From Bdellovibrionales bacterium (GTDB taxonomy: Bacteria > Bdellovibrionota > Bdellovibrionia > Bdellovibrionales > UBA1609): a DNA stretch of 64,000 bases. Positions 2,933 through 57,242 of the stretch are shown here, one piece after another. The position numbers and the translations under genes are program-made. The first letter of the stretch is position 1. Every line of letters begins with the position of its first letter. The notes below the pieces were generated by a model. The model made no database searches and was not told the origin of the DNA. It saw nothing but the letters and a program-made list of their open reading frames with translations. The stretch spans positions 18,720 to 82,719 of the forward strand of contig JBFWQY010000022.1 of NCBI GenBank assembly GCA_050249195.1, written 5' to 3'.

Positions 2933-3624
2933 TCGTGTGGCTTTGGTTGCTCCCCCTGGGAGAAGTTCCACGTCCCCTAATGGTCGTGTGGAACGTAGGT
3001 CAAGGCCAATGGGTTACAGTACGTGACGAGCGCGGGTGCTGGCATTTTGATGCGGGCGGCGAGTCGGCGCCCTGGCGGCAGGTGATGCGCCTTTGCCGCC
3101 ACTTGCCCAATTATCTCTCTCTCAGTCATTGGGACTGGGACCATATCGGATTTGTAGCTCAGATGGCCTATCATCTTCCCAACACTTGTCTTTTGCACGA
3201 GCCGCCGGGATCCGCCACAGCTCGCAAGGCCCGGATTGTGGAGCGAATCGGCCGCTGCTCGATCCCACCTACCTACCCGTTCTGGGAGAATCCCGCGGTA
3301 ACGGACAGCTCCAACGCCCTCAGCCGCGTTTTGCACTGGCGAGGTATTCTTATTCCGGGCGATTCCACTCGTCATGAAGAGGCAGTTTGGCGACAAACCC
3401 TTGATCTCCGCTCCGTCCGAATTCTTATTCTTGGTCATCATGGAAGCCAAACTTCCACTTCGCGGGAACTTCTCCACACACTGTCTTCCCTGCGAATGGC
3501 CATTGCAAGTAGCCGATACGAGCGGTATGGCCACCCCCATCGGCGCGTGCGGGAAGAGCTCCAGCACGCACACGTTCCTCTGATCACCACGGAGGACTGG
3601 GGGCATATTATAATTTGGCTCTAA
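2905..3624 (+). CDS. ComEC-type metallo-beta-lactamase-fold nuclease domain encoded as a separate ORF
   Basis: NVGQG, DAGG, SHWDWDHIG, GDS, GHHGS, YGHPH motifs; GAGGTG RBS before ATG 2905. Confidence 0.85.
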   Translation: MAARLGVFLIVWLWLLPLGEVPRPLMVVWNVGQGQWVTVRDERGCWHFDAGGESAPWRQVMRLCRHLPNYLSLSHWDWDHIGFVAQMAYHLPNTCLLHEPPGSATARKARIVERIGRCSIPPTYPFWENPAVTDSSNALSRVLHWRGILIPGDSTRHEEAVWRQTLDLRSVRILILGHHGSQTSTSRELLHTLSSLRMAIASSRYERYGHPHRRVREELQHAHVPLITTEDWGHIIIWL

Positions 3625-16600: not shown

Positions 16601-17638
16601 GACGTGCGAGGCACCGTCACGGATGTGAAGCTGAACATTCCCGAGGGGTTTCGCACGCGCGGTTCGGGCTCGGTTGCCATCTCAGGGGAACGTTTCCCTT
16701 ACACCATGAACATCCAATATGACGTCTCGGGCGGCGAGGTCGTGTATGAATTCGGCGGAAGCGACTCCGACAGCTCCAACGTGAAGGCCAGCATCTACCT
16801 ACCGCAGTTTCTCTACCGGGATGCGTTCCACCCCTTCACGTTTGACGTGAAGGTGAATCTCCTCAATCCGGTTCTGATCAACAACGCGCTCGTGCATTCG
16901 CCCGTTTCCGGCAAGCTCAGCGCCACGGGCACTCCCGATCGGCTCTTGCTCGATGGCACACTGACTCCGCAGCCGGGCGGGAAAGTGTTTTTTCATGACG
17001 TGCCGTTTGAAATCGCCACCGCGTTTGTCGACTATAATCGTTCCCCACCCAACGCGCCAAAGATTTACCTAACCGCCAATACGCGTGTGTCCGAGAGTGT
17101 GCAGGACGACCAGGGGCGCGTGACCGAACACCACTATGACGTGAATCTCTTGGTTCAAGGGCGCGGACCCAATCCCCAAATCATTCTTTCTTCACAGCCC
17201 CCTTTGAGCCAGCGCGAGTTGGTCTCACTCCTCGCGCTCGGAGTGACTCCTAGCGGCCTGGATGAAGGACGTTCTTCGGAATTCCAGGCGGCCAATACAT
17301 CCACGGCCCTCGGCGCAGCCCTCCTCCAAAAGGCGGGAAGTCGGCGTCTGAAAGACTCCATCGGTTTGGACGTGAAGGTGACGTCCTCGCAACCGACGCC
17401 TGAGACCGCCTCCACTCCCAAGGTGACCCTCTCCAAGCAATGGACGCCGAAATTCGGGGCCTCCGCTTCGAGCACCCTCCAGGCGAACCCGTCGAACAAC
17501 GTCAAAGTGGAATACAAGATGAATAAAAATATCTCCGTAATCGGGTCCTGGGACGGCCGTGAATACACGCCGGAGACAAAAGATACGAATCAGAACGTCT
17601 TCGGCCTGGATCTGGAGTACAAGGTCCAGTTTAAATAG
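13652..17638 (+). CDS. TamB/AsmA-family translocation and assembly module protein
   Basis: N-terminal TM anchor, long beta-rich repeats, C-terminal LSSQPPLSQRELVSLLALG and GLDLEYKVQF (DUF490-like). Start taken at GTG 13652 after AGGGAG. Confidence 0.88.
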   Translation: MGLNRRTLIQFSLFAAFSCLLGFSYSYHLPRLETFLLVELEKISQTHLPVRIWARKLNFHLFPLGIVLEDVRLLPKKPLDRYLAPTRLKEIGARVAVWPLLRGDVRLSQIFVRDSQVNVFLRPELFEKSDESALKVDFDQIYNLPINELLFENVVIQGRVEPQNVFFRASDVNLLVENRYRSLFIDLEAPKTIVKPSGPIDPLNVQIELRTLLEAEEMQISALKIRADESFLVASGRCNGDLSVGRVDNGAFDARAKIQLPDLNLWESIFASSPRLPPLQGQTEFDIGLEIRNGQAVRVETDLNAQDLHVDRFTIGAVQGRFNSDLKSLHTDKVRWRNQAGEIQFRDLKVEFSPHPSFTTGVNMNEVDLHSFLANLNVNRVPVELPVSGDATCKGAWGENPEAHCQATIQAPRLRVHTDPENKTIVATERLKARGDVRVTATSVDYRAELEIGARSRGRSQGVISYQKGFQIQYEGDEVHFTDVKDLAGLKFEGGLQVKGRTDGTSKWATLEMNVAAKNLWLEDYPLGQLTSKVRYKSGHLFFDSAQGQYEVTRYNGNLDVDLREDRMKLALQIPFVDLRDIQSLFQRKITLPFQIAGTGTGQIEAEGPFNFRRLSYVVRSKFFRGQIAEESFDELTFNVKSTDGMVQSERIFLTKASGVMEAKGQVNPAGDVDAVVVARGLRLEQSENVLALGFDLQGQADFTLLIRGALPRPRVELNGRLSRVVLGDQPADDSVFKLNFLSDRMEGSGQFLGTTLVSEFTFPYTGEAPFLFKLKTHQWDFTNIFSLVSQSARQLDFTTSVSMDVNIQSPTGGFWNSSGQVQVNQFVIRKGARSMSASKPMYLSFREGVINSNGFAIGSGDSYLKLDVVNLRRDALNASLNGKLDLSLLGLFTPFISDLRGAMSISMDLGGRFPNPNLSGSAYVDKGYAKFVDFQHPFSNVRADLLFNDNQILLNAVRGDLGGGKFSGQGRITFAGQNTHPVDVRGTVTDVKLNIPEGFRTRGSGSVAISGERFPYTMNIQYDVSGGEVVYEFGGSDSDSSNVKASIYLPQFLYRDAFHPFTFDVKVNLLNPVLINNALVHSPVSGKLSATGTPDRLLLDGTLTPQPGGKVFFHDVPFEIATAFVDYNRSPPNAPKIYLTANTRVSESVQDDQGRVTEHHYDVNLLVQGRGPNPQIILSSQPPLSQRELVSLLALGVTPSGLDEGRSSEFQAANTSTALGAALLQKAGSRRLKDSIGLDVKVTSSQPTPETASTPKVTLSKQWTPKFGASASSTLQANPSNNVKVEYKMNKNISVIGSWDGREYTPETKDTNQNVFGLDLEYKVQFK

Positions 17639-17645
17639 AGGTTTG

Positions 17646-20498
17646 ATGAGAGTGCGTTTAAAACCATTACTGGCATTCCTGCTTCTGTTCGCAGCGGCGG
17701 AGCAAGCTTTTGCCGCTGGCGTTTCCTTGCGCGAGCTCAACGCCAAAGATGAGGACCTGCTGCGCAAGCGGTTGCCAGGGTTGTCCAGCGGCAATCCCGA
17801 TTTGAGCACTCTCGATGAAGCCATCCGATTGCTTATGGACCAGGGGCGCTATGAGAACGTCTATGTGGATCGCAAGCAGAACGGTTCTTATGAAGTCATC
17901 GGTCGCCCATTGAGAGTCGTGGAAACGATCCAATTCGTCGGCGCCGATGAAGTCGAGGAAAGTCAGCTGCGCGACCTGCTGGAGTTCAAGATCGGCGAGC
18001 GCTTCGACCGCAAGAAGGCGGTCGCCGCCGGCGAACGAATGAAGAACTTTTACGGCGAAAGCGGCTATTTCAACACCATTATCGAGGTCAGCTTCCATAA
18101 AACAGAATCTAATAACATCAAGCTTCTATACGAAATCCAGGAGAAAGTGCCTTGCACGATTGTCTCGCTCACCTTTGCAACGGGAAACACCGACCTCAAG
18201 GCTAAACTTGATCGCCGGTTCAGCCATTTAGTGAACAAACCCCTGACCACCGAACGCGTGCGCCAGCTGATGAACGATCTCAATGAATTTTTGATCAGCA
18301 ACCGATATCTCGCGGCCGAAGTCATAGGTCCTGAGGCGAGCTACAATGAGGACAAGACGAAGTCCTTTCTGAAATTCGAGATTGAGAACCCGTACCGTTA
18401 TGAGTTTTATTTTTCCGGTTACAAGTTTGAGACTCTGACCGGCATTTACCGCGCCATGGATCTTAAGGACAAGGAACGGAAGAACGTCGAACCTCCCGGT
18501 GAAGGGGCTGAGCGCCTGCGGCGCCATTATCTGGCCGAGGGCTTCCCGCACGTGGAGGTGGAGACGAAAGTGGTCAACCCCAAGGGTACCTATCTGAACC
18601 GTGTTTACTATACGATTCACGAAGGTCCCCGTGTTAAAATTCAGAAGATTGAAGTTCAGGGACGGATCTCGCGGCGGTCTGAATACTACGAGGAATTTAT
18701 TCTTGAGAACAGCTCGAGTTTGGTGGAACGCCGGTCCTACAATCGCCAAGACCTTGAAAACGGGTTCAAGAATTTGACGACCGAGCTGCGCAATCAAGGA
18801 TTTTTGCGCGCGCGTGTGCTGTCATCACGTGTGGAATACAACGACGCCCGCGACAAAGTGACGGTCATTGTTTTGCTCGAGGAGGGACCACAAACCCAAA
18901 TCCGCGCTCTTGATTTCGAGGGCAACCGCTTCTTCTCAAGCTTTGATCTGGCACGAGTAACAGGGTTACAGACCAATACAGCGCTCCGGCTCTCCGCATT
19001 CGAGGCCAGCATCGAGAAACTCAAGCAATTTTACCGGAGTCAGGGCTTTCTTGAAATGAGGTTGCTGAACGAGGGTGAAGATCTGATTCAATACAACGAT
19101 AAGGGCACCCAAGCCCGAATCGCGTTCCGGATCTTTGAAGGTCCGCGCATCCGGGTGAATTCCATTGTCGTCGAGGGGAATAACTTTACCAAGTCTCGAG
19201 TGATTCTCAAGGAAGCCGATTTCGAGGTGGGGGAAGTGCTCACGCCTAAAAAAATCGAAGACGCGACCGCGCGCCTGAATAAACTGGGTCTGTTTTCGCG
19301 CGTGGATATCCGCACTCTCGAGGAGGGCACCAACGTTTCTGCGCGGACCCTCGTGATCTCGGTGAGCGAACGCGATCCCGGAATCTTCCGCTTCGGCGTG
19401 GGCGTCAACAACGAACGCAACCTGACGGTTCGCGGGTTCACCGGGCTCAGCCATAGCAATATTGCGGGCACCGCGCGTGCCGTAAGCGGTCGCGTCGAGG
19501 TGAAGTCCAATGTGGCCGAAATTAATTATCTCGAGCATGAAATCGCGGCCGGCTATCTTGAGCCCTTCTTATTCAATACGCGCACCCGCGGGCGCGTCAA
19601 CATCACACGCTCTGAACATGTCTTCGACTATGAAACGAAGGATGAGTACACCGCGATCACGGCGAGTAACCGGATTGACTTCTTGGCGGAGCGGGATCTC
19701 ACAACTCATACCAAGTTGACATGGAAAATATGGGGCCTCGAATCTCGGCGCGAGTTTGAACGCTACGGACGCTGTCTTCCGCCGGATCCCGAGCCGGGGC
19801 AGCCCGCCGCGGACTTCGACCCGAATCAATATTGTCCGCCCACAACGCAACAGATCGCCACCATCGGTCCAACGCTCCTTCTGGACTACAGTGACAATCC
19901 CTTTCTACCCACCCGCGGCTCCATCACCCGGCTCACCGTCGACTACTCTCACCCGGATTTTGGCAGTTCAAGTCTGATCGAATTCGTGCGGACCGAGGGG
20001 AGTTATTCCTACTACCATCGCCTGGGATCGCCCCGGCTTGTGTGGGCCAACTCAGTGCGAGGAGGCTACGTCTCCAATCTGAGCGGGCGTGAGAACAGCG
20101 GCGTTCCGACCAGTTATGCCTTCCTCTTAGGAGGCATCTATACAGTTCGAGGATTCGACCTTGCGAGTGAAAATGAACGCATTCCGAAGGAAGGCGATGA
20201 CGACTTCGTGGTCAATCGGGGCAACCAGCTTCTGATTCCCAAAGATTCTCATTATTACCTTTTCAAATCCGAACTCCGCTTTCCGATTTCAGGAGATCAC
20301 GGCGGTGTGCTCTTCTACGATGGCGGCGGCGTTCGGGTTACCGGCTTCCATTTTAAACACTCCTACCGGGACGCGGCCGGCGTCGGGTATCGCTACAATA
20401 CGCCGGTGGGACCGCTCGCGCTGGATCTCGCCTTCAAGCTTCATCCACTCCCGAACGAAAAGGAGTTCCGGCTGCACTTGTCCATTGGAACGTTTTAG
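17646..20498 (+). CDS. BamA/TamA (Omp85) family outer-membrane assembly protein with multiple POTRA domains
   Basis: Signal peptide, repeated I.F.GN / EGP..I POTRA motifs, GG..TVRGF, GVGYRYNTPVGPL, terminal Phe. Confidence 0.92.
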   Translation: MRVRLKPLLAFLLLFAAAEQAFAAGVSLRELNAKDEDLLRKRLPGLSSGNPDLSTLDEAIRLLMDQGRYENVYVDRKQNGSYEVIGRPLRVVETIQFVGADEVEESQLRDLLEFKIGERFDRKKAVAAGERMKNFYGESGYFNTIIEVSFHKTESNNIKLLYEIQEKVPCTIVSLTFATGNTDLKAKLDRRFSHLVNKPLTTERVRQLMNDLNEFLISNRYLAAEVIGPEASYNEDKTKSFLKFEIENPYRYEFYFSGYKFETLTGIYRAMDLKDKERKNVEPPGEGAERLRRHYLAEGFPHVEVETKVVNPKGTYLNRVYYTIHEGPRVKIQKIEVQGRISRRSEYYEEFILENSSSLVERRSYNRQDLENGFKNLTTELRNQGFLRARVLSSRVEYNDARDKVTVIVLLEEGPQTQIRALDFEGNRFFSSFDLARVTGLQTNTALRLSAFEASIEKLKQFYRSQGFLEMRLLNEGEDLIQYNDKGTQARIAFRIFEGPRIRVNSIVVEGNNFTKSRVILKEADFEVGEVLTPKKIEDATARLNKLGLFSRVDIRTLEEGTNVSARTLVISVSERDPGIFRFGVGVNNERNLTVRGFTGLSHSNIAGTARAVSGRVEVKSNVAEINYLEHEIAAGYLEPFLFNTRTRGRVNITRSEHVFDYETKDEYTAITASNRIDFLAERDLTTHTKLTWKIWGLESRREFERYGRCLPPDPEPGQPAADFDPNQYCPPTTQQIATIGPTLLLDYSDNPFLPTRGSITRLTVDYSHPDFGSSSLIEFVRTEGSYSYYHRLGSPRLVWANSVRGGYVSNLSGRENSGVPTSYAFLLGGIYTVRGFDLASENERIPKEGDDDFVVNRGNQLLIPKDSHYYLFKSELRFPISGDHGGVLFYDGGGVRVTGFHFKHSYRDAAGVGYRYNTPVGPLALDLAFKLHPLPNEKEFRLHLSIGTF

Positions 20499-47672: not shown

Positions 47673-47687
47673 GTATCATTCCGAGAC
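47673..47687. promoter_or_regulatory. Imperfect GTATCA-TTC-CGAGAC palindrome upstream of paralog C
   Basis: 10 of 12 arm positions match GTCTCA-N3-TGAGAC; ~40 bp before the start; overlaps the upstream stop codon. Confidence 0.35.
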
Positions 47688-49100
47688 GTTCGGCCACGGC
47701 GGACAGTAGCCACGGGGTAAAGTGCTGAAGCGGGGGTAGTTTTCCCAGTACCGCGCCTCGAACTCTTCAATCAGGTCTGGTCGGGCAGCCGCTAGGTTCC
47801 GTCGTTCCTCCGGGTCCTTTTCCAAATCAAAAAGGAATCGCTCCCCATCCGCCACGCGCACGAAATACTTGTATTTGTTTTGATACCGGAGACCCCGGAC
47901 CGTGTTCGCGCAATCACGAGCGATGACATAATCGTCATGCAGTTCCTTCAGATCCTTTTTCAGGTCATCCAAATGTGCCGTTCGACGCAAGATCCGCCCA
48001 AGAAGCCGAGCCACAACGCCGTGGTGGATGGATTCGTTCACCACGATGCGCTCCCCGACCCGACCCGGAATTCGAATTGCCATCGGAACGCGAAGCTCCT
48101 GATCATAAACGGACTGTCCATGGGTCAACAGGCCGTGATCCATATGAGCCTCGCCATGATCTCCAACAAAAACCACGATTGTGTTGCGCTGCAAGTTCTT
48201 GTTGCCATAGAGGTTCAACATCGGCCCGAGAAGACGATCCAAATAGCGGGCGTTTCCACGATAGACCTTTTTGAAGAGCTCAAGATCTTGCTTGAACGAG
48301 GGACTGGATTCCCAGTCTTTTAGCAGCTCGGCGTTGGTCACCAGACCGGAGACCTTCACGCGATCGGCGGGCGAAGGACGAGGAATCCACTTCTTGACCT
48401 TGGGATGGGTCAATGCAATGTTCGGATTCAGGGTCAGCATCATCAAAAGAGGCAGCTTTTCGGGATAGCGTTCGGGATGAGTTGTGTATTCCCGCACCAG
48501 TTCCCTTTCATCCGCGTTCAAATAAAAGTCCCATTCGGAATCCGGATTAAACACATCAATCAATGGAAAATGCATGTACTTCAGATGGGCGGCTATAAAG
48601 AACGGGCGCGGGTCAGGATAGGTGATCATCTCCCTGGTGAGGTCATAATAATACCTGTACTGTTTTTCGAAGAGGGAATTGATAAAAAACTTTTCCTCGG
48701 GCTTGATCACGCTGCGGCGGAGTGGGATCCGAGTTGTGAAAAAATCCGCTGGCCAAATATTCAGCGGGCGGTAGCCGAGCTCCACCAATTCCTTGCCACG
48801 AATCGCAGCTGGAATAAAATCTTGAAGATTCGTCCACGGCGTGGGATTGAACGCATTCTGAAACACGTATGTGCTGTCTTTGAAAAACCGCTCAAGGTTG
48901 GGCAGGACGATCTCGCCCTCAAGTCCATACTGCTTGAGAAGACGCGTTTGAAGGCTGCACGTGGACACCACAAGCACGGCCGGCACCTTTGGAATCTCGC
49001 CGGCGCGATGGCGCAGAAACCACTTCACAAGGTAATAGTACACGGCCAGATTGAATCCAATGAGAAGGACGATAAGGAGGAGTCTGCGCCTGGAATTCAT
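47676..49100 (-). CDS. Membrane-anchored sulfatase-like (alkaline phosphatase superfamily) protein
   Basis: N-terminal TM, PFFIAAHLKYMHFP, YLDRLLG, GDHGE, HG..VY..ELRVPM, LFDLEKDPEE..NL. Confidence 0.88.
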   Translation of the reverse strand: MNSRRRLLLIVLLIGFNLAVYYYLVKWFLRHRAGEIPKVPAVLVVSTCSLQTRLLKQYGLEGEIVLPNLERFFKDSTYVFQNAFNPTPWTNLQDFIPAAIRGKELVELGYRPLNIWPADFFTTRIPLRRSVIKPEEKFFINSLFEKQYRYYYDLTREMITYPDPRPFFIAAHLKYMHFPLIDVFNPDSEWDFYLNADERELVREYTTHPERYPEKLPLLMMLTLNPNIALTHPKVKKWIPRPSPADRVKVSGLVTNAELLKDWESSPSFKQDLELFKKVYRGNARYLDRLLGPMLNLYGNKNLQRNTIVVFVGDHGEAHMDHGLLTHGQSVYDQELRVPMAIRIPGRVGERIVVNESIHHGVVARLLGRILRRTAHLDDLKKDLKELHDDYVIARDCANTVRGLRYQNKYKYFVRVADGERFLFDLEKDPEERRNLAAARPDLIEEFEARYWENYPRFSTLPRGYCPPWPNVSE

Positions 49101-49744
49101 TTCAGCGGAGACGGATCCACGATAAACAAGTCCTGAGCCAAATCACTTAACTCCTGAGCCACTTTCTGGAACTCCGAAGGCGTGCGGGCGGATGCTTTCT
49201 TAAAGACACGCGCTTCAATCACCATCGATGAAGGTGGATGGTAAAAATTCATGTAACTTGCCCAATACGCCACCTGATCCTTTGAGCAGGCACCGAATAA
49301 GCGGCGCGAGTTCGCACCCGCGACAAATCCCTCGACGTCAACGCCACCCTCTTTCACCTGAAAAGCCCGCGGCAGCAGCTGCTCGGAGCACTGAACCAAG
49401 CTCGTCACCTGACCTTCGTACGGATTCGTACGCGGTTTATACAAGGCGGCAACGTTCGTGCGTTCGATTGCCGCCATCTGCAAGGCCGTACGGCGCTCCG
49501 AAAAGCGAGTGCCTTTGATTGTGGCGCTGTACGTGTCGTTAGAAATATTCCAGGTGAAGCCACGGGACGTTTGGTGTTGAGGCGAGGTCGTGTCGGCTTT
49601 GAATCCCGTTTCCGGATTCAGCCTTAATCCCGGAATTGTGAATTCGGTGGCATGGGCCACGGAGAGTGAGATGAGGAGCATTCCGACGCCAAACAAACGA
49701 CTCAATGTCTGCATCTTTAAACGATAGCGAAAGATCTGGACCAC
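49097..49744 (-). CDS. Exported hypothetical protein
   Basis: Signal peptide ending AHA; NPYEGQVT...C and FGAC; 4-nt overlap with the sulfatase-like gene. Confidence 0.75.
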   Translation of the reverse strand: MVQIFRYRLKMQTLSRLFGVGMLLISLSVAHATEFTIPGLRLNPETGFKADTTSPQHQTSRGFTWNISNDTYSATIKGTRFSERRTALQMAAIERTNVAALYKPRTNPYEGQVTSLVQCSEQLLPRAFQVKEGGVDVEGFVAGANSRRLFGACSKDQVAYWASYMNFYHPPSSMVIEARVFKKASARTPSEFQKVAQELSDLAQDLFIVDPSPLK

Positions 49745-49764: not shown

Positions 49765-50466
49765 CTAGCGCGCGCGATCTCGCCCGCGCCCGCGCCGGCG
49801 CTCGCCACTACCACCGCCACTACCACCGCCACCGCTGCCATTGCCGATCTCGTTGCCGCTGCCTCCGCTCTCACTGCTTCCACCACCACCACCGCGGCGG
49901 CCGCCGCCGCCGAAGTTCTCGTGGATTCGATTCTCTCCGCCGCCTTTTTTGGATCTGCGGCGGCTGCGTCCCGAGCCCGATTCCGACGAAGAATCTGAGT
50001 CGGTCTCCATGATTCGGCCGTCAATCAAAAGAGGGAGTCCGGCGGCCGCACGTTCGGCAAGGCGACTCTGCAATTTAGGGCTGCTTCGGATCTTACAACA
50101 AAGATGAATCGCGGACTTCACGGATGAGGCTCTCCAGTCGGGATCCTCGTAAGGATTTTTCTTAAATCGACCGCCCTCAAGAGCCTGCATCTGCCGGTCC
50201 AGATCGAGACTGCGGCGCTCAAACTCGGCCAACACTCTTTTGACCCGGACCGTAAACGGAAAGAGCTTCCCTTCGAGCGCTTCCACTCGGCTCGGTAACC
50301 CTTCCTTAAGCGCTTTTGAATATTCGGATACGGGCTCCGACGAGCCCATGCGGTCCCGGATATACTGAGTTAATGCGGCTTGTTCTCCGTTCTGAGCAGC
50401 CCAGAGCGGCAGGCAGGAAATCAGCGGCACAATACATAAGATCTTAGCGGGACTTCTCACCGCCAC
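49765..50466 (-). CDS. Exported hypothetical protein with Gly/Ser/Arg-rich tail
   Basis: Signal peptide, helical core, then ~75 aa of G/S/R low complexity. Confidence 0.65.
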   Translation of the reverse strand: MAVRSPAKILCIVPLISCLPLWAAQNGEQAALTQYIRDRMGSSEPVSEYSKALKEGLPSRVEALEGKLFPFTVRVKRVLAEFERRSLDLDRQMQALEGGRFKKNPYEDPDWRASSVKSAIHLCCKIRSSPKLQSRLAERAAAGLPLLIDGRIMETDSDSSSESGSGRSRRRSKKGGGENRIHENFGGGGRRGGGGGSSESGGSGNEIGNGSGGGGSGGGSGERRRGRGRDRAR

Positions 50467-50941
50467 CTTTCGCGCCCTTCGAACCCTGTTCGCGTTTTAC
50501 TGAATCCCCCTGAGATTGCGGAGAACGCGGGGATTGAATGGTCACACCCGAACAGATGGCGGCCATATCACTGCGCAGGCGATTGACTTCCACCTGGCGT
50601 GTCGTTTCTAAAATTCGGAGTTGCTCCTGATACTGGCTGCCGGTGGCAGCTTCCACGCGCTGCCGTTTGGCCTCAATTTCGTCAGTCAACTGGCGGAATC
50701 GCTTGGTATCATTCAGCTGACCCTCCAGAGCCGCCACGCGACTGACAAGCTTGGGCATTTCACCGCACATGGCTTTCGCTTCCGCGGTGGTCTGTTGATC
50801 CACGTAGGTCTTAACTTCCGGAGATAAAGGGAGCGGGTTACACATGCTCGAACTCACACCTGGAATAAACCGCATGGACAGGTAAACCGAAACCGCGGTC
50901 AGGAGAACAACAAGTGAAACTTCAAGAGCGCCAATTCGCAA
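50444..50941 (-). CDS. Membrane-anchored coiled-coil hypothetical protein
   Basis: N-terminal TM, coiled coil bounded by Cys residues; GAGG RBS; overlaps the next gene. Confidence 0.7.
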   Translation of the reverse strand: MRIGALEVSLVVLLTAVSVYLSMRFIPGVSSSMCNPLPLSPEVKTYVDQQTTAEAKAMCGEMPKLVSRVAALEGQLNDTKRFRQLTDEIEAKRQRVEAATGSQYQEQLRILETTRQVEVNRLRSDMAAICSGVTIQSPRSPQSQGDSVKREQGSKGAKGGGEKSR

Positions 50942-51018: not shown

Positions 51019-51852
51019 TTAGTTTCCAGGGTCCGTGCCGGGGCCGGGGCCACCCGGTCCGGGGCCAGGACCTGGACCGGGGCCTGGACCGGGGCCTGGT
51101 CCTGGTCCGGGGCCAGGACCTGTAAATCGGGGACAAACTTGGCCACAGACGCAAATCGGAACCCCGTTATTAGTGAAGCCTTGGACGAAGTACCGATGAC
51201 TGCAGCTGGCATGCAGCAACGTCGGACAGGGAGCACCAGACGAATTGCAATTCATACCCTTGATGGAGAGATGGACGGGTGGACAATCGTTGACCACGCC
51301 CCCTCCTACCGGTTTACCCACCGTCACCGGAATCACTCGCGGAGCAATATCACCTCCGAACACAAAATCGCCGGAGGGATTCGTGAAACTGATCACCAAC
51401 TCAGAGGCGACCGCATGATAATCGGCCCCACCAAACTTATAATTCGTGATGGCTCCACCGGCCGCGGGCCTGAGCCGCATCGAGGAAATTTGCAAGCTCG
51501 GATTGATTAAGGCACCCACCTCAATTGCGATGACCCCACCAGGTTTGACGATTTGAAAGACATCGACACCAGCCGCGGCGGGGGACATGGGATTCCCATC
51601 CCATGGCCAGACCACATGGGACCCACCGGCAAAAAACGCGGAACTGCAGATGAACCGGTCCGAAAGCAGGCTTGCCGCAAGCTCACGAATACGGTCAGCG
51701 TCTGCAGCCACGGATCCATGTCGAAGCATGCCGGTAATCGTAGTGGATAAAGTGGCGACCATAGCAATTACAACGCCCAATATGGCAACCGCAACGAGAA
51801 CACCAACCAGCGAGACTCCGTGCACTGAATTGAGTAGCCGCGAAGTTTTCAT
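51019..51852 (-). CDS. Prepilin-type protein B with Cys-rich domain and (GP)11 tail
   Basis: MKTSRLLNSVHG|VSLVGVLVAVAILGVV class III-like leader; start overlaps the upstream TGA. Confidence 0.85.
   Translation of the reverse strand: MKTSRLLNSVHGVSLVGVLVAVAILGVVIAMVATLSTTITGMLRHGSVAADADRIRELAASLLSDRFICSSAFFAGGSHVVWPWDGNPMSPAAAGVDVFQIVKPGGVIAIEVGALINPSLQISSMRLRPAAGGAITNYKFGGADYHAVASELVISFTNPSGDFVFGGDIAPRVIPVTVGKPVGGGVVNDCPPVHLSIKGMNCNSSGAPCPTLLHASCSHRYFVQGFTNNGVPICVCGQVCPRFTGPGPGPGPGPGPGPGPGPGPGPGGPGPGTDPGN
51022..51120 (-). repeat. GGN-CCN hexamer repeat encoding (GP)11-GGPGPGTDPGN
   Basis: Read directly from the sequence. Confidence 0.95.
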
Positions 51853-52721
51853 CAGTTCCCCGGATCTGTTCCTGGTCCAGGTCCTCCTGGTCCTGGGCCC
51901 GGCCCTGGTCCAGGCCCCGGTCCTGGTCCCGGGCCTGGCCCTGGTCCCGGACCTGCTACCGGGGCACACACTCTCACGCAATCACATTGCGGAACCCCAT
52001 TCGCATCAAACCCCGGCATAAAATACATCGCCTCACAGTCCACCGGCATACCCAAGCAGGGATCTGGACTTGGCTGATTGTAAGTTGAGGCATCACAAAT
52101 AAAACTTCTCATCGTCGTGTTGACCGTGTGGCACATGACAATCTGGCTACCCGCATTGGGATTGGTAATGATCGTCACAGGCACAATGCGGTCTTTAAAT
52201 GCTTCACCGCCCGCGGCGTGCAATTGAGAGGGCGATGCGCCTCCCGGAGTATCGGTCGGCCCAAACAAAAGGCGAACCTGAGCCGTCCATACGTCTCGGT
52301 TACCAGGATCTCCGGGAACAGGACCCACATTCAGGGGAGTCGGAGTATTGAGGTCCGCGCCCGACGTCGCCCTTGCTGGCTCTAAGACAATTCTTTGCAA
52401 CCAGGAGGTGGGCCCTAGCTGCGTCGGAGCACTCACCGCGACTATCCCATTCACTCTCAAATTCGCAATCGCCGTCGGAGTGCCCGTGTATGTCGCTCCC
52501 CCCCAGGCATTTCGACAGATCTCCTGATTGCCCATGATTCCCTGAACGAGACGATGAATTGTATCCACATCCGTGGTCATCGTGGAGCGCTTTACCACGC
52601 TCGTCATATTGTCGAAAATTGTAGCAAGGATGGCCGCGACCACACCCATAATGGCGATCGCCACAAGCATGCTGATCAGACTGATGCCTCGTGTGGAGCG
52701 GAGCGGCCTTGTGACTGACAT
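51852..52721 (-). CDS. Prepilin-type protein A with Cys-rich domain and (GP)11 tail
   Basis: MSVTRPLRSTRG|ISLISMLVAIAIMGVV; GAGGTG RBS before ATG 52721. Confidence 0.85.
   Translation of the reverse strand: MSVTRPLRSTRGISLISMLVAIAIMGVVAAILATIFDNMTSVVKRSTMTTDVDTIHRLVQGIMGNQEICRNAWGGATYTGTPTAIANLRVNGIVAVSAPTQLGPTSWLQRIVLEPARATSGADLNTPTPLNVGPVPGDPGNRDVWTAQVRLLFGPTDTPGGASPSQLHAAGGEAFKDRIVPVTIITNPNAGSQIVMCHTVNTTMRSFICDASTYNQPSPDPCLGMPVDCEAMYFMPGFDANGVPQCDCVRVCAPVAGPGPGPGPGPGPGPGPGPGPGPGGPGPGTDPGN
51855..51953 (-). repeat. GGN-CCN hexamer repeat encoding (GP)11-GGPGPGTDPGN
   Basis: Read directly from the sequence. Confidence 0.95.
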
Positions 52722-52804: not shown

Positions 52805-54901
52805 TCAGTACTTTTGTTCAGGTGAACCACTTTCGAACACTTCTGCTAGAGCCTCGGCATCGGGTTTGTACGGCGGGGAAACTCCCAAAATCTTCATAAC
52901 CGTAGGATATTGCTCAAGGTGAGAGATCGGTCGAGACAAGCGATGTCCCTTTTTGATTCCTGGACCCATCACCATAAATGGTGTCCATAGACCTTGTTCC
53001 CGATCGGTGAGAATCGCCTGTTTGTATCCGGACTTGAGGGACTCGGCAAACACCTCCAAGTCCTCAGTCACATCCTCGATCCAGCCATAACCGACCTCGT
53101 TGGCGATTACAAGATCGCCTACGCGCTCCCTCGGCAATCCCCATTGCGATGATTCCTCGCGAGTGTGAAGGGCCGCCAGAGGGGAAAGGCCTTGTGCGTC
53201 GCGCAGCTCGCGGAGAGTTGAAATCACCTCCTCACGCAGGCGCTCATAGGCCGGACCGGAAGCCGGTTGATAATCTCCGGCAAGCCCATTCGGGTGGAGA
53301 TAGACGTGATTCATTTTCAAAAAAATCACCTTGGTATGAGCCCAATCGATCCTCGGAATGCCCGTTTCCGGATCCTTCTTGAATCGCAGCCACCCCTTGC
53401 GCGCAAAAAGATTGTTTAGGCGCACTTCATAATTCAGTGGCACGGCGCCATGGTCCGAACTCAAGACCACGTAGGCATTGTCTGCCCGCGCCTGCAAAGC
53501 CGAGCCGATAAGATCATCGATATGTCGGTAGATGGAGAACACCTCCGCTAAGAGCGCCTCGCGCTCGCTGTCCTCAGTGCGCGCGTACTGACGCCCGCGC
53601 GGATCGATCGCGCCCAGCCACCATCGACTGGTCAGCATTTGATTGGGCGAATAGACCGAGTGGATAAAGACATCCTGCGAAGCTTCATTGATAAAGTAGG
53701 CCTGGGCACGCTTGTGCCAATCAAATGACATCTCAAATTCATCCAGAAAGGCCTCTTTGTCTTCCGGAAAATAAATCAGCTGAGGTGGGTAATTGTCGAC
53801 AAAGTCCACCATCGGACCCGCCGCCTGATGCAGCTGATCACTGATCTCGTGCGGCACAGCCACGGTCTCATTCAAACCATCATAGAGCACGCGCAATCGG
53901 AACGAGCCGGGTTCTCCGAGCTGGATCACTTTCACTCGCGCCTGGGTGGGAAACTTCAAGACGGAAAGATCCTGCTCAAGCTTCAAGCGCTGGGGCAAGG
54001 CCTCCTGGTAATGGCGCTGAACACGATAAGACAAGGTGATGGGAAACCAGTCACTCCATTCTCCAACCCTCAGTTGAGCCAGAGTTTTATCCTTATCCAG
54101 CGAGACGGTGGCGGTGTCGTATTGAGCCAGCCCGTCATCCATGCTATCGCTGAGAAGAACCCATAGGTCGGCGTCCCAGTTGCGCAAATTGATCTCGTAA
54201 AGGGGACCATAAGACGTCGGAGGTCGGGCGCGCCAGCCGGAGGCAGGTTCAGCCTTGATGAATTCAGTCAGCTTCTTCTCAATCTGAAAGACGCGGTCAT
54301 TCCACCCCAGAACATGGCGGAACTCGACATCTTCATGAGCATGAAAAATCATATTTGGAAATTCAACGCCCCATCCTCCCCACCGCCCCTTGACCACATT
54401 GCCGCGCGTGATCTCTGGAGGGGTAGAGCCCGGCACGGAGAGTAAGCTCACCACCCAGCCCGCCTGTTCCAAAGTATACCAAAACGGATCCAACGATTTT
54501 GCAATGGAGCTAAATCCTGAGCGGGGGACAATGGAAAGTGGATATCCGGGAATTCGGATTGGACCATCCGCAACACCATGACGCTGAGGGAGTGTGCCCG
54601 TGAACAGCGTTGCGAAGTTCACGGGCGTGTGACTGGGAAACACGGGAATGGAATAGCCATAGCTTCCCTCATCCATCATCCGCTTAATATTGGGGAGCTT
54701 GCCTTCCTCCGCCCATCTATACATGTTGAAGAGTCCGGGATCCGCGCGAAGACCGTCAGGAACCAACCAGTATAAGCGCCACGGACGCCGCGACGCCGCG
54801 GATTGCCAACTCCGCCGTTTTGCGAGCACAATAAGACCAAGACAAAAAACCAAGAGCCCTGTAACAAGAACTGCCACGCGCTTGAACTGAAGGGATTTCA
54901 T
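52805..54901 (-). CDS. Membrane-anchored nucleotide pyrophosphatase/phosphodiesterase-like (alkaline phosphatase superfamily) protein
   Basis: N-terminal TM, PDGLR, FPSHTPVNFATLFTG...HGV, SSDHGA, FMVMGPGIK, PTV. Confidence 0.9.
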   Translation of the reverse strand: MKSLQFKRVAVLVTGLLVFCLGLIVLAKRRSWQSAASRRPWRLYWLVPDGLRADPGLFNMYRWAEEGKLPNIKRMMDEGSYGYSIPVFPSHTPVNFATLFTGTLPQRHGVADGPIRIPGYPLSIVPRSGFSSIAKSLDPFWYTLEQAGWVVSLLSVPGSTPPEITRGNVVKGRWGGWGVEFPNMIFHAHEDVEFRHVLGWNDRVFQIEKKLTEFIKAEPASGWRARPPTSYGPLYEINLRNWDADLWVLLSDSMDDGLAQYDTATVSLDKDKTLAQLRVGEWSDWFPITLSYRVQRHYQEALPQRLKLEQDLSVLKFPTQARVKVIQLGEPGSFRLRVLYDGLNETVAVPHEISDQLHQAAGPMVDFVDNYPPQLIYFPEDKEAFLDEFEMSFDWHKRAQAYFINEASQDVFIHSVYSPNQMLTSRWWLGAIDPRGRQYARTEDSEREALLAEVFSIYRHIDDLIGSALQARADNAYVVLSSDHGAVPLNYEVRLNNLFARKGWLRFKKDPETGIPRIDWAHTKVIFLKMNHVYLHPNGLAGDYQPASGPAYERLREEVISTLRELRDAQGLSPLAALHTREESSQWGLPRERVGDLVIANEVGYGWIEDVTEDLEVFAESLKSGYKQAILTDREQGLWTPFMVMGPGIKKGHRLSRPISHLEQYPTVMKILGVSPPYKPDAEALAEVFESGSPEQKY

Positions 54902-55836
54902 TGCTTAAACTCTTCTCCGCTCCCATAGTTGTCGGAATCGCACTGGGACTGCTTTTCCCCTATCAATCGCTCTCTCTTATTTGGGTGAGTTCCATTCTGC
55001 TCTTTCTACTTTTGTTTCTCAACACGCTTTCCGTGGACTCACGAAAAATATTTGCGGTTTCGCGGAACCAAGCCTGGCAATCGCTGACCGCGCAAGTTCT
55101 CATATTTTTCATCTTTCCGGTCATTCAAACCGGAGCCGCCGCAGCCATCCTGCATGATCCTGATTTCGTGTTCGGAGTGGCCGTAAGCAGCCTGGCGCCT
55201 GCCGCGCTCGTAAATCCCTTTTTCGCTCACGTGCGCGGTGGCGACCGGGCGCTGGCTCTGCTGAACGTGATCCTGTCGACCGTGTTAAGTCCGCTGCTCA
55301 CCGTTCCCCTGCTGTTCGCTCTCGGCTTGGGCGCGGTTTTTATCAACTCCCGTTTCTTGTTCGTCTACCTTATAGGCCTGACGGCTCTGCCCGTGCTGTT
55401 GAGCTTTGGAGTCACGACGCTCTGGCCTGGCGCCGGCGCCCGAATCCAGCGGATTCTTCCCGCCGCAAATTCGCTGATTCTCGCGGCGCTGATGTTCATT
55501 CTGGTCGGATCCTCTCTCAACCGCGTACCCGTGCGCCTCTTACTCAAAGGAGATTTTCCGAATTTGCTTCTTCTTTTTGTTGGTATCGATTTCGGAATCT
55601 TTATCGCCGTTCGTGCGGCTGCAAAGCTCTTTCTGCCCATTCCGGGCGCGGAAACTTTGGCGCTAAGCGTGGCCACGCGGAACTTCGCCGTGAGCGCCAG
55701 CTTGATGCTGCTCTTCCATCCTAAGGCGGCGCTTCCCTCAGCTGCAGGGCTGATCATTCACTGTTTGTTTTTTCAATGGCTTGTATGGCGGGGCGCCCGA
55801 TCTCGATCCGCTTCCGCCGAGGAGTGTGCAATGTGA
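54901..55836 (+). CDS. Bile acid:sodium symporter (BASS)-family transporter
   Basis: About 9-10 TM segments, APAA...GGD.ALAL...STVLSPLLTVP, TRNFA; GAAGGGA RBS before TTG. Confidence 0.85.
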   Translation: MLKLFSAPIVVGIALGLLFPYQSLSLIWVSSILLFLLLFLNTLSVDSRKIFAVSRNQAWQSLTAQVLIFFIFPVIQTGAAAAILHDPDFVFGVAVSSLAPAALVNPFFAHVRGGDRALALLNVILSTVLSPLLTVPLLFALGLGAVFINSRFLFVYLIGLTALPVLLSFGVTTLWPGAGARIQRILPAANSLILAALMFILVGSSLNRVPVRLLLKGDFPNLLLLFVGIDFGIFIAVRAAAKLFLPIPGAETLALSVATRNFAVSASLMLLFHPKAALPSAAGLIIHCLFFQWLVWRGARSRSASAEECAM

Positions 55837-57242
55837 CCAAGCCGGCATTACGCCATCCCGTTCGCGTGCTGATCGTTCTTCTGGTGACGACTCTTTCAAT
55901 TGGGCTCGTGGGCTTGGCCATTCGCTTTCAGCCTGAGATCCGTTGGACCTGGAGATATTTGCGCTCAGCTCCGCTCCCCCATTCGCCGCTGCCTTCGCCG
56001 CCGCCCGCGTGCGACGGCTGCAGTTTGATCTTGATTGCCCTCGACACTCTGCGCGCTGACACCCTGATTCACATGCCCCGCCTGCGGGCGATCGCCGCTG
56101 AGTCCATGCTCTTCACCCATGCGTACACACCCGCGTTCTACACGACACCGAGTCATATGAGCGTCTTCACATCGCTTTACCCCGACCAGCATCGTGTGAT
56201 GGGCGCCGGCATCAAAATCCCGCGGAACCCGCGCACTCCTTATAAAGCGTATCGTTTAAGTGCCAAGATCAAGACCCTTGCGGAGATCTTACGGGACCGG
56301 GGCTATCGCACGGCATGGTATGGCCCCATGCGCCTCAAACATCTGGATTTTGAGCTGGGATTCGCCCGCGGGTTTGAGCACATAAGGCCGAGTCCCTTTA
56401 CGAGGCCTCTTTGGAATGGTGAAATCGCGCCCCGATTTCAAGCTGACCACATTCCTCCTCCGCAAGCGCGGGAATTCCTGTTCATTCATTCCTATATCAC
56501 GCATTTGCCATATGTGCTCCCCGATGCCAAAGAGGGCCCATTCGCGCGCGACGAGTTGTGGGCCCGCCTTCAAGAGCGGCGGAGACAAGCCCACGAGCGC
56601 GACGCGGACTCCGATTCCATCCTCCATGCACTTGGACAAGATCAACTTCGCCAGTTTTCCAAAATGCCCGGACATTCGGCGCAAGAGCCCTTACGTCGAG
56701 CTTACGTCCATTCTGTTTCCGTTCTGGATTCCCAGATTGGGGAGCTGTGGGCAAAGTTAAAGGACCAGGGGCGGCTGCAAAACACGGTCGTGGCCTTCTT
56801 TGCGGATCATGGCGAAGAGCTTTTGGAGCATGGCCAGGGCAGCCACTCCAGTTTCTATGAGCACACGTCCCACGTCCCGCTCATCATTTATCATCCGCGC
56901 CTCCGCCGAGGGCTCACGTACGACAATCTCATCAGCCTGATCGACCTTATGCCAACCCTGCTGGCGTTGCTGGGAGTTCCCGTCCCGCCGCAAGCGCGCG
57001 GTCTCAACGTGTTCACGCGAAGCCGTGCTTATGTCTTCGGCTCCACGTTAGGAAATGAATTCATCTCGGATGGCGCCTGGAAATTGCTCCGGACTCACGC
57101 GGGGCGCGAACGCCTCTTTTATCTTCCCCTTGATCCGTTGGAGAAGCACAACCTCAGGCCCTACCAGACATTATGGACAAGGGACGCCTTGGCGCGGTTG
57201 CGCCGGGAACAGAGACGGTGGGAACTCGAACAAGCGCTCTGA
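55833..57242 (+). CDS. Membrane-anchored sulfatase-like protein
   Basis: IALDTLRAD, AYTPAFYTTPSHMSVFTSLYP, ADHGE, HVPLII, IDLMPTLL, DPLEKHNL; GTG start after GAGGAG. Confidence 0.9.
   Translation: MTKPALRHPVRVLIVLLVTTLSIGLVGLAIRFQPEIRWTWRYLRSAPLPHSPLPSPPPACDGCSLILIALDTLRADTLIHMPRLRAIAAESMLFTHAYTPAFYTTPSHMSVFTSLYPDQHRVMGAGIKIPRNPRTPYKAYRLSAKIKTLAEILRDRGYRTAWYGPMRLKHLDFELGFARGFEHIRPSPFTRPLWNGEIAPRFQADHIPPPQAREFLFIHSYITHLPYVLPDAKEGPFARDELWARLQERRRQAHERDADSDSILHALGQDQLRQFSKMPGHSAQEPLRRAYVHSVSVLDSQIGELWAKLKDQGRLQNTVVAFFADHGEELLEHGQGSHSSFYEHTSHVPLIIYHPRLRRGLTYDNLISLIDLMPTLLALLGVPVPPQARGLNVFTRSRAYVFGSTLGNEFISDGAWKLLRTHAGRERLFYLPLDPLEKHNLRPYQTLWTRDALARLRREQRRWELEQAL

Follow-up and report, generated by a model that had tools for sequence, protein, structure and literature searches.

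An identical 33-residue Gly-Pro tail encoded by divergent codons in two tandem pilin-like genes of a Bdellovibrionales bacterium

Two adjacent genes of a Bdellovibrionales bacterium, here termed A and B, code for pilin-like proteins which end in the same 33-residue peptide, (GP)11-GGPGPGTDPGN. Since the DNA of the two tails is saturated in difference while the peptide is identical, it appears to be the peptide itself that is preserved. Judged from the two coding sequences, the codon comparison shows that purifying selection on the tail is required, at a minimum for the final 11 residues and for keeping the repeat pure. The reading which we prefer, with about even confidence, is purifying selection on a spacer and end tag common to two co-produced pilin-like subunits. 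Both genes are located in the window, i.e. the whole stretch of 64,000 nucleotides that was analysed, as follows.

51855-52721 (stop codon 51852-51854), minus strand: gene A, a pilin-like protein of 289 aa with 8 Cys, in which a 12-residue leader with Gly as its last residue precedes a hydrophobic helix, and a C-terminal CxCxxxC motif precedes the tail
51022-51852 (stop codon 51019-51021), minus strand: gene B, a pilin-like paralogue of A of 277 aa
51855-51953, minus strand: tail A, the C-terminal end of gene A, (GP)11-GGPGPGTDPGN, the bases of which double as the stretch directly upstream of the gene B start
51022-51120, minus strand: tail B, the C-terminal end of gene B, (GP)11-GGPGPGTDPGN

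The interval to which the original prediction drew attention, 51019..51953, is correct: it opens with the stop codon of gene B (51019-51021) and closes, at 51953, with the first codon of tail A. That the tails are identical in repeat count, in the single GG break and in the TDPGN end was likewise confirmed on translation, with 33 of 33 residues matching. Within the bacterium's own genome (4.94 Mb, 68 contigs), runs of at least four GP units occur only in tails A and B and in their opposite-strand mirror images. DNA coding for GP reads GP on both strands, giving rise to mirror open frames opposite both tails. As a protein end, the exact 33-residue tail was not found beyond genes A and B, either in the own genome or in the public collections. 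A degenerate DNA pattern for the last ten tail residues matched 8 loci in genome_contigs and 5 in metagenome_contigs, in scans from which the records of the window's own genome were possibly omitted; none of these 13 loci is the C-terminal tail of a pilin-like gene. The window stretch is present, in the form of contigs only, in three DNA runs of one landfill-metagenome study, one of which is possibly the window's own source. Where they cover the window, these contigs have no differing letters and no indels, run X3 covering parts only; RNA runs carrying the stretch were not listed. The contigs of the landfill runs break inside tail B, at a 30-base word which is common to another contig.

All differences between the tails are located at third positions, and the predicted number of 27 differing codons out of 33 is exact, leaving 72 of 99 bases identical. 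Based on the codon usage of the genome, the chance of two Gly or two Pro codons being the same is about 0.27, and the codon difference of the tails is the floor expected for unrelated codons. Ten of the last 11 tail codons, the end of which lies outside the repeat, differ between A and B, as do four of the five non-repeat codons (T, D, P, G, N). The Nei-Gojobori method yielded a pN of 0 of 67.3 sites and a pS of 0.85 (27 of 31.7) for the tail, and a pN of 0.49 and pS of 0.79 for the bodies; where the residues are identical, the codons differ in 54 of 74 cases in the bodies and in 27 of 33 in the tails. The dN/dS check suggested for the tail thus revealed no non-synonymous change, with synonymous sites saturated in the tail as in the bodies. 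The upstream globular domains are indeed only distantly similar, sharing 75 of 230 aligned residues (33%), and BLASTP of A against B, tails included, aligned 303 residues with 107 identities (E 8e-18). Zero amino-acid change, combined with saturated synonymous sites and a body identity of 33%, means that recent duplication, forward gene conversion and slippage fail to explain the identity of the tails. The original prediction had argued against all three, and its argument is borne out, as regards gene conversion for the forward orientation; no forward offset beats the floor of 72/99. Its claim that selection acts on the tail peptide is supported by a tail pN of 0 at saturated pS in proteins whose bodies are down to 33% identity.

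Codon choice in each repeat is constrained: tail A is purine-ended, tail B is pyrimidine-ended, and both choices lower self-pairing. Purines occupy the third position in 26 of 33 codons of tail A as compared to 10 of 33 in tail B (Fisher P 1.6e-4). The self-fold energies of the two tails are -54.1 and -55.1 kcal/mol, versus -73.5 ± 6.2 kcal/mol for 1000 synonymous recodings (P 0.002 each). As a result of this codon choice, at most 11 consecutive bases are identical between the direct repeats, the longest identical run of the tails in forward orientation being 11 nt. The “saturated synonymous divergence” of the original prediction was therefore measured correctly, but was overstated as a clock, because third positions are skewed, self-folding is weak, and a reverse-complement relation is marginally detectable. 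Synonymous sites of the tails, being under selection, are a poor clock, and the age rests mainly on the few non-repeat codons. In general terms, synonymous sites inside such repeats are not neutral, since skewed third bases weaken self-pairing, which matters for their use as a clock. Tandem Repeats Finder (TRF) detected an internal period of 18 nt (85% matches) in tail A; in tail B it detected two, one of 12 nt (100%, 2.4 copies) and one of 30 nt. The GP repeats of both tails appear to be old, as exact internal repeats reach no more than 11 nt in tail A and 19 nt in tail B, versus at least 30 nt in a same-genus orthologue whose (GPGPAP)n tail has expanded recently and carries an exact 18-nt expansion.

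Inverted copying, by which one GP repeat would have been copied from the other as its reverse complement through template switching or in-place inversion, would have reset both repeats to 11 units, leaving the protein unchanged and complementing the third bases in one step. In that case, the equal length of the repeats would in part reflect their history, and aligning the wrong strands would account for part of their “saturation”. The reverse complement of the (GP)11 of tail B indeed matches the (GP)11 of tail A in 55 of 65 bases and 11 of 21 third positions, with a longest run of 17 nt as compared to 11 nt in forward orientation. At the full-overlap offset, the chance of such a match is 0.006 with a null model of genome codon usage and 0.011 with a composition-keeping shuffle, but it amounts to up to 0.08–0.15 over all in-register offsets. 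The opposite purine/pyrimidine skews are the outcome expected of a flip; however, hairpin avoidance alone also explains them. Formation of poly-GP from both strands of the GGGGCC repeat is documented for C9orf72 in passages of PMC11670477. We consider inverted copying unlikely, because a flip of the 11 post-repeat codons would alter the peptide, and yet 10 of these codons differ, making them more diverged than the flipped repeat alignment; at a true match rate of 52%, the probability of one match or none in 11 is about 0.004 (hand calculation). Since these codons are unflippable but diverged, selection on the peptide would still be needed if inverted copying had occurred.

As far as their sequences tell, A and B are cysteine-rich, Glu5-less type IV pilin-like proteins. 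Like the family consensus, both show a short basic leader ending in Gly, followed by about 20 hydrophobic residues, and the family profile matches the first helix of solved pilins (E 5.7e-7). The label “pilin” has to be narrowed to pilin-like: the Pfam PF07963 (N_methyl) scores of 21.1 bits (A) and 19.6 bits (B) are under the cut-off of 21.2, and mature position +5 is occupied by Ser in A and by Gly in B instead of Glu, which is present in some members of the family. Some pseudopilin subunits (GspK) also lack Glu5. In the AlphaFold2 model of B (mean pLDDT 85.6), a helix comprising residues 15-64 is followed by a beta sheet, and the tail (residues 241-277) is modelled as coil with pLDDT 49-69. 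A Foldseek search of the model against the PDB returned no match at E <= 0.001. Minor pilins and pseudopilins top the weak structural matches obtained with VIA-align, at Z 3.7-4.6, which is below the trust level of that tool. Cys columns are invariant in the family alignment, and A and B are presumably exported and disulfide-bonded. Two matches to PF01478 (prepilin peptidase) above cut-off are present in the own genome; genes for pilus or secretion machinery were not detected among the Pfam-scanned ORFs of the window. Collagen-like (G-X-Y)n is absent from the tail, as its period is two residues. Sorting signals of the PEP-CTERM or GlyGly-CTERM type have a motif with a hydrophobic helix behind it and basic residues clustered at the C-terminus; no such signal was found in the tails, the TDPGN end being without a hydrophobic stretch.

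The TGA of gene A and the ATG of gene B overlap by one base (TGATG), and the sequence GAGGTGA is located 8 bases ahead of the gene A ATG. From the one-base overlap, the paralogous genes A and B appear to be co-transcribed and translationally coupled. They may also bind each other, as suggested by a weak pass in complex prediction, where the A-B pair scored 0.56 and the best of three controls 0.00. Of 157 solved complexes, 116 attained the pass mark, as did 2 of 215 mismatched pairs, passing scores of <=0.60 comprising only 18 of the 157 solved complexes plus both passing mismatches. Contacts in the A-B runs agreed to at least 41%, with partner pLDDT of at least 72; an interface was not reported by the complex tool.

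By sequence, genes A and B seem to belong to a small, fast-evolving family. Full-length matches are almost only from the window's genus, a genus-level group placed in Bdellovibrionota (ESM Atlas). The closest relatives in the collections searched show best identities of 30–40%, and no close orthologue of either gene was found there. A word-indexed protein search with whole A scored 8000 candidates, none at E <= 0.001, and repeat words are suspected of having swamped the candidates; when residues 1-252 of A were used, none of 677 candidates was found at E <= 1e-5. The window's own proteins are absent from the results of the latter search and from those of the full-length family search. A tree of 54 family sequences (leaving out the spurious hits P0052 and P0054, the fragments P0030, P0039, P0040, P0047 and P0048, four duplicates, and the cut L005 fragment) is poorly resolved, with A and B as long branches which are not sisters in the free tree. 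Holding A and B together raised the log-likelihood by 3.15 (AU P 0.67), and due to the poor resolution the tree gives no call on a lineage-specific duplication. A published description of this family or its tail was not found in the literature on pilin Gly-Pro tails and Bdellovibrio pilins, where the Bdellovibrio match deals with gliding motility. Among the matches listed, no paper containing the string GPGPGPGP is on pilins by title, and none was pertinent to identical residues with synonymous divergence in low-complexity paralogues.

Tails within the family comprise 1-110 residues and are Gly-, Pro- or Gly-Pro-rich, or are absent altogether. None of the tails of relatives of A and B, including the same-genus positional orthologues, has the TDPGN end. 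The general claim of the original prediction that exact length and sequence are kept as in a molecular ruler is contradicted by the comparison of repeat numbers among orthologues, in which tail length and make-up vary freely and TDPGN is not conserved, as had been set beforehand as the refuting outcome. Tandem paralogues in the other genomes examined do not have tails that are alike, and in two same-genus genomes one partner of the pair has a Cys-rich extension instead of such a tail. With a spacer that is unconserved family-wide and tandem paralogues elsewhere that are unlike, any matching requirement would be peculiar to this lineage.

Such a requirement would exist if the tails ran alongside each other as polyproline-II strands within an A-B heterodimer, or if they gauged a fixed distance. 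In-register pairing or a ruler would demand tails that agree in length, in the GG break and in their end, as those of A and B do, and both repeats are pure over 11 units, versus 5 units in the next-longest pure run among 63 family sequences. Translational coupling of the genes and the weak pass of the A-B complex prediction also fit. Nevertheless, we regard pairing or gauging as quite improbable in view of the unlike or missing tails of positional orthologues and other tandem pairs, the Cys-rich extensions mentioned above, the lack of structure of the tail in the model, and the absence of a reported interface.

Pairing of tails A and B in the mRNA, with gene B looped out and its translation or decay thereby controlled, would make the identity of the peptides a by-product, but is very unlikely. 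Pairing of the two tails is present in both the minimum-free-energy and the centroid fold of the 971-nt stretch (z-score -3.47 versus 20 shuffles); however, the A:B duplex (-135.9 kcal/mol) is no better than those of synonymous recodings (-138.4 ± 6.1, -148.2 ± 9.9, and -136.2 ± 7.8 kcal/mol; P 0.52–0.89), any two GP repeats are expected to pair equally well in mRNA, and the identical non-repeat end of the tails is left unexplained. The A:B RNA duplex was rejected as a selected feature, since synonymous recodings pair as well. Convergence of two low-complexity tails by chance or by mutational slippage, with the peptide unselected, is very unlikely: Gly/Pro-rich tails do arise and expand readily in the family, as in the same-genus orthologue with the exact 18-nt expansion, and the TRF periods differ between A and B, but the two tails agree in their single GG break and in TDPGN as their end, there are no non-synonymous changes in 67.3 sites at saturated pS, and the 10-residue end is at no protein C-terminus among the 13 pattern matches in two public collections.

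The proposed C-terminal recognition or modification tag is upheld in part, as regards the last residue, which recurs in the family, whereas nothing else of the end does. Among 63 distinct family sequences, 42 low-complexity tails end in Asn (21), Tyr (9), Phe (3) or other residues, these sequences being kin and the counts thus not independent; Asn is the last residue in 3.8% of 2996 long open frames of the genome. Asn ends were found in 16 of 26 low-complexity tails of Glu5-less members passing the N-terminal filter, as compared to 0 of 12 tails of Glu5-bearing members passing that filter, 7 of which end in Tyr.

The genes next to A and B on the minus strand are listed below.

52808..54901, minus strand: upstream neighbour, a membrane-anchored alkaline-phosphatase-superfamily enzyme of 698 aa (Pfam Phosphodiest, E 5.2e-25)
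50447..50941, minus strand: downstream neighbour of 165 aa with one N-terminal hydrophobic stretch, the remainder read as coiled coil from the translation; no Pfam match above cut-off
49768..50466, minus strand: protein of 233 aa with a Gly/Ser/Arg-rich low-complexity C-terminal half (translation)
49100..49744, minus strand: protein of 215 aa, the N-terminus of which is read as a signal peptide; no Pfam or NCBIfam match
47679..49100, minus strand: sulfatase-type enzyme of 474 aa, membrane-anchored at its N-terminus and belonging to the alkaline-phosphatase superfamily (Pfam Sulfatase, E 1.5e-11; NCBIfam matches sub-threshold only)

A homologue of the 698-aa Phosphodiest protein adjoins the pilin genes in the same-genus L002 and L004, and a counterpart of the 165-aa protein comes after the pilin genes in L003, L004 and L007. 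The 233-aa protein has a counterpart in L004, and both the 215-aa protein and the 474-aa enzyme have counterparts in L005. A Pfam search of the neighbouring open frames revealed no oligosaccharyltransferase family, but alkaline-phosphatase-superfamily enzymes and unassigned proteins instead.

According to our preferred reading, selection on a common spacer and end tag, the folded domain of both proteins, which closes with the conserved CxCxxxC motif, is followed by a Gly-Pro spacer that is unstructured or extended and would have a length of about 10 nm if it adopts the polyproline-II form (our estimate). Each spacer would end in a short tag, ...G-N. Subunits A and B probably work together, and if both offer a terminal Asn tag to one partner over an equal distance, their tails would be held alike. 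Across species, the spacer would be free to change, with the end residue alone being kept. Only tentatively, we suggest protein-level concerted evolution without DNA homology: co-assembling subunits would be held to the same spacer and tag, while their codons would be driven apart (purine- versus pyrimidine-ended), possibly by a silent strand flip, for which a GP-coding repeat alone leaves room, thereby avoiding hairpins and direct-repeat recombination; a partner, perhaps one of the adjacent alkaline-phosphatase-type enzymes, would recognise the tag, which is Asn here and Tyr in the sister group with Glu5. Low-complexity tails are usually taken as fast-drifting filler, and the 33-residue Gly-Pro tail is a clear example from nature of a repeat peptide under selection. 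The finding also draws attention to a pilin-like family of predatory-type bacteria that has gone unstudied, in which the last residue, as the one constant feature of the tail, suggests a C-terminal recognition or modification step.

Minor pilins and pseudopilins (XcpV/W, GspI/J/K, PilX, PilE, and PilB of Streptococcus sanguinis) resemble A and B in the short leader ending in Gly, the hydrophobic N-terminal helix, the helix-plus-sheet head as modelled, and the tandem genes. A and B differ from them in a larger head (about 180 residues, 8 Cys) and in the low-complexity C-terminal tail, and the structural likeness of the family to these proteins is weak (Z <=4.6; nothing at E <= 0.001 in Foldseek). 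Another protein with a Pro-containing dipeptide repeat is TonB, whose repeat is charged (Glu-Pro, Lys-Pro). Alternating X-Pro repeats of TonB are expected, in passages of PMC12204202, to form an extended polyproline-II rod spanning a set distance. The comparison is an analogy only; the TonB repeat is located between domains, whereas that of A and B is Gly-Pro, terminal, and a low-confidence coil in the model. The GGGGCC repeat of C9orf72 encodes poly-GP on both strands (passages of PMC11670477) and thus has the same strand symmetry which gives the mirror open frames at A and B; it is, however, eukaryotic, non-coding and subject to non-ATG translation, in contrast to the ordinary coding tails of A and B with their scrambled third positions. 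In TfpO (PilO)/TfpM pilins and pilin-like proteins, the acceptor is Ser or Thr, as opposed to Asn in A and B (Tyr/Phe in the sister group), whose neighbouring genes include no oligosaccharyltransferase family. Nevertheless, the very last residue of these proteins is recognised and modified (glycosylated) by an enzyme, as described in passages of PMC9829042, and they show that the last residue of a pilin can have a function, as suggested for the end tag of A and B.

Genes A and B, two neighbouring pilin-like paralogues, are arranged head to tail on the same strand, and the TGA of A overlaps the ATG of B by one base (TGATG), which implies coupled translation.

51855-52721, minus strand: gene A, open frame of 289 aa from an ATG with GAGGTGA ahead
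51022-51852, minus strand: gene B, open frame of 277 aa

Both proteins have the C-terminus (GP)11-GGPGPGTDPGN. A script reproduced the hand count of the original prediction: all 33 tail residues are the same and 27 of 33 codons differ, always at the third base, leaving 72 of 99 bases identical. The interval first reported, 51019-51953, extends from the stop codon of gene B through the first codon of tail A. GP runs occur in the whole genome only in A and B. Opposite-strand open frames at 51035-51199 (+) and 51587-52021 (+) read PGPGPG... over both tails; they were rejected as genes, being mirror images of strand-symmetric GP-coding DNA. Contigs of public sequencing runs end within tail B, where a 30-base word (51069-51098) is also present in an unrelated 7210-base contig. 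Depth in run X1 is equal on either side of this break (23.7 and 24.1) and gene order is kept in relatives, supporting the join at tail B.

Each protein starts with a 12-residue leader ending in Gly, followed by a hydrophobic stretch, and carries eight Cys at aligned positions. Scores against Pfam N_methyl (A, 21.1 bits; B, 19.6 bits) fall slightly short of the cut-off of 21.2. When a profile from 51 family sequences was compared with solved type IV pilins, it aligned with their first helix (best E 5.7e-7), and this match is limited to the first 57-64 positions. The AlphaFold2 model of B on the 51-sequence family alignment (mean pLDDT 85.6) consists of a helix (residues 15-64), then sheet, with residues 241-277 as low-confidence coil. 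Foldseek gave no match in the PDB at E <= 0.001; the best VIA-align Z of 4.6 is under the tool's own trust level, and minor pilins and pseudopilins top its list (5bw0_B, 7b7p_A, 5g25_A, 2ret_A, 3ci0_I, 4noa_A, 2opd_A). Position +5 is Ser in A and Gly in B, not Glu. A and B are described as type IV pilin-like, Glu5-less subunits, likely members of the superfamily with one defining feature missing. Two prepilin-peptidase matches in the genome exceed the cut-off; no pilus machinery turned up in those window frames that were scanned with Pfam.

The bodies upstream of the tails are distantly similar, as originally proposed (75 of 230 aligned residues identical), with pN 0.49 and pS 0.79 by Nei-Gojobori counts (NG86 dN 0.80, dS undefined). 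For the tail, pN is 0 of 67.3 sites and pS is 27 of 31.7 (0.85). A pair of Gly codons or of Pro codons drawn at random under this genome's codon usage matches with a probability of about 0.27, so agreement between the tails sits at the floor expected of unrelated codons. Among identical body residues other than Met and Trp, 54 of 74 use different codons. Thus, the silent sites of the tail have diverged like those of the body, while its replacement sites are unchanged, and the proposal that selection acts on the tail peptide is supported. No forward offset aligned the two tails better than the in-register 72/99. Four of the final five codons (T, D, P, G, N), which lie outside the repeat, also differ; as at least four differing codons of five reach P = 0.05 only at a per-codon difference rate of at least about 0.34 (hand calculation), divergence there is likewise substantial. 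TRF detected internal periods of 18 nt in tail A and of 12 and 30 nt in tail B.

A positional orthologue in a same-genus relative (L002, contig G011:C221, 1492-2403, plus strand) has a (GPGPAP)n tail of an exact 18-nt unit, and this tail is therefore a recent slippage expansion; the contig stops inside it. The longest exact internal repeat is 11 nt in A and 19 nt in B, versus at least 30 nt in that expansion. As judged from these sequences, the repeats of A and B appear old and degenerate as DNA, and pure as protein. The family tree is poorly resolved; constraining A and B to be sisters improves the fit slightly (log-likelihood +3.15 relative to the free tree, AU P 0.67).

The silent sites of the tails are not neutral. 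Purines occupy 26 of 33 third positions in tail A and 10 of 33 in tail B (Fisher P 1.6e-4), and both tails self-fold much more weakly than synonymous recodings, with energies of -54.1 and -55.1 kcal/mol compared with -73.5 +/- 6.2 (1000 draws; P 0.002 for each tail). A uniform-codon null gave the same result (0 of 200 draws for A, B and the GPGPAP repeat of L002, which is itself purine-skewed and weakly self-folding). Apart from its N, GGNCC is self-complementary, and skewing N to one side is therefore how hairpins can be weakened. The skew also limits the direct repeats of A and B to shared runs of 11 identical bases or fewer; we infer that this protects gene B from recombinational deletion. 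A predicted mRNA duplex between the tails was rejected as a selected feature, as it is not stronger than with recoded tails.

Since either strand of (GP)n-coding DNA reads as (GP)n, as PMC11670477 describes for poly-GP from the C9orf72 repeat, the repeat of A was also compared with the reverse complement of that of B, to which a strand flip would relate it. Of 65 bases compared, 55 are the same, as are 11 of the 21 third positions, and one exact run spans 17 nt; P is 0.006-0.011 at the full-overlap offset but 0.08-0.15 over all offsets. The match is only suggestive of a strand flip, which would not account for the last 11 codons; these are not silently flippable, and 10 of them differ.

An exhaustive HMMER search of 1.84 billion proteins with B retrieved 56 representatives at E <= 0.001 (P0001-P0056), twelve of them reaching E <= 1e-10 but none 1e-30, mostly with 27-40% identity; P0052 and P0054 were rejected on reading their sequences as unrelated low-complexity matches. 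At E <= 1e-8, 57 of 109 whole genomes of the same family matched. Full-model matches are almost exclusive to the window's genus, in which 14 of 17 genomes match. The nearest ESM Atlas clusters are unnamed, some with N_methyl, and most often from Bdellovibrionota. No close orthologue of A or B was found in the protein and genome collections searched. Gene order is kept within the genus: an alkaline-phosphatase-type enzyme, one to three pilin-like genes, a coiled-coil-like protein, a Gly-rich protein, a protein without family match and a sulfatase-type enzyme. Three membrane-anchored alkaline-phosphatase superfamily enzymes (Pfam Sulfatase and Phosphodiest domains) surround the pair:

47679-49100, minus strand: alkaline-phosphatase superfamily enzyme
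52808-54901, minus strand: alkaline-phosphatase superfamily enzyme
55776-57239, plus strand: alkaline-phosphatase superfamily enzyme

Two of them adjoin pilin genes in same-genus genomes too, and these enzymes are candidate modifiers of the pilin-like proteins. The frame at 49768-50466 (-) encodes a 233-aa protein in which Gly, Ser and Arg make up nearly all of the C-terminal third; long mirror frames lie opposite, and in the same-genus genome G005 the pilin genes are followed by a counterpart. A TamB-like gene (1368 aa) directly ahead of an Omp85/POTRA gene (979 aa) at 13532-20495 (+) forms an ordinary outer-membrane assembly pair.

A conserved CxCxxxC motif ends the folded domain, and the sequence beyond it is highly variable. 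Tails of 63 distinct family sequences range from 1 to 110 residues: 15 are no longer than five residues, 6 consist of Cys-rich extensions and the other 42 have low complexity (Gly-rich, Pro-rich, Gly-Pro, Pro-Val or Ala/Gly-rich). The longest unbroken GP run in this set beyond the window is 5 units, against the 11 that A and B each have. In the other genomes looked at, tandem paralogues lack common tails. In two same-genus genomes the second gene has a Gly- or GPGPAP-rich tail, and a 50-residue Cys-rich extension replaces the low-complexity tail of the first:

2466-3497, minus strand: first pilin-like gene of locus L004 (contig G005:C2)
478-1449, plus strand: first pilin-like gene of locus L002

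Similar Cys-rich extensions occur in P0021, P0045 and P0050. A degenerate DNA pattern of the last ten residues hit 13 places in two public collections, none a pilin tail. With repeats freely variable and TDPGN absent from every other family tail looked at, the molecular ruler of the original prediction is, on these sequences, refuted family-wide. The tail identity within this genome remains a feature that drift fails to explain, and a need for matched tails, if present, may be lineage-specific.

The proposed C-terminal tag fared differently in its parts, as the last residue recurs but the TDPGN end does not. The last residue of the 42 low-complexity tails is Asn (21), Tyr (9) or Phe (3) among others, counts that are non-independent because the sequences are related; among 2996 long open frames of the genome, Asn is the last residue in 3.8% and Tyr in 1.9%. 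Glu at +5 splits the family (P0001-P0056; L022, L023, L026, L029-L031) into a sub-group with short Pro-rich tails and a Tyr end, and one without Glu that has Gly/Pro-rich tails and an Asn end. Among the 52 sequences passing an N-terminal filter, Asn is the last residue of 16 of the 26 low-complexity tails of Glu5-less members and of 0 of the 12 of Glu5-bearing members, 7 of the latter 12 ending in Tyr. The end type is common to tandem genes of one locus. Non-independent as these counts are, the last residue outlasts all other tail features.

The observation of the shared tail stands, and the only reading that fits all data is that the tail peptide is under purifying selection in each of the two paralogues; codon choice is also shaped by avoidance of hairpins and, we infer, of recombination. 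Complex prediction for A and B (residue 38 to the end of each) weakly supports a putative A-B complex: the median score was 0.56 (best of three controls, 0.00), against a mark that 116 of 157 solved complexes pass, as do 2 of 215 mismatches. With scores of 0.60 or under, only 18 of the 157 pass it, together with both of these mismatches. At least 41% of contacts agree between runs and the partner has a pLDDT of 72 or more; the tool reports no interface. The favoured function, argued with two analogies, is that the tail would act as a flexible or extended spacer whose last residue, Asn, may serve as a tag for a partner common to the two co-produced subunits. Such a spacer would resemble the X-Pro spacer of TonB (PMC12204202), and the tag would resemble the ends of pilins modified on their last residue (PMC9829042).
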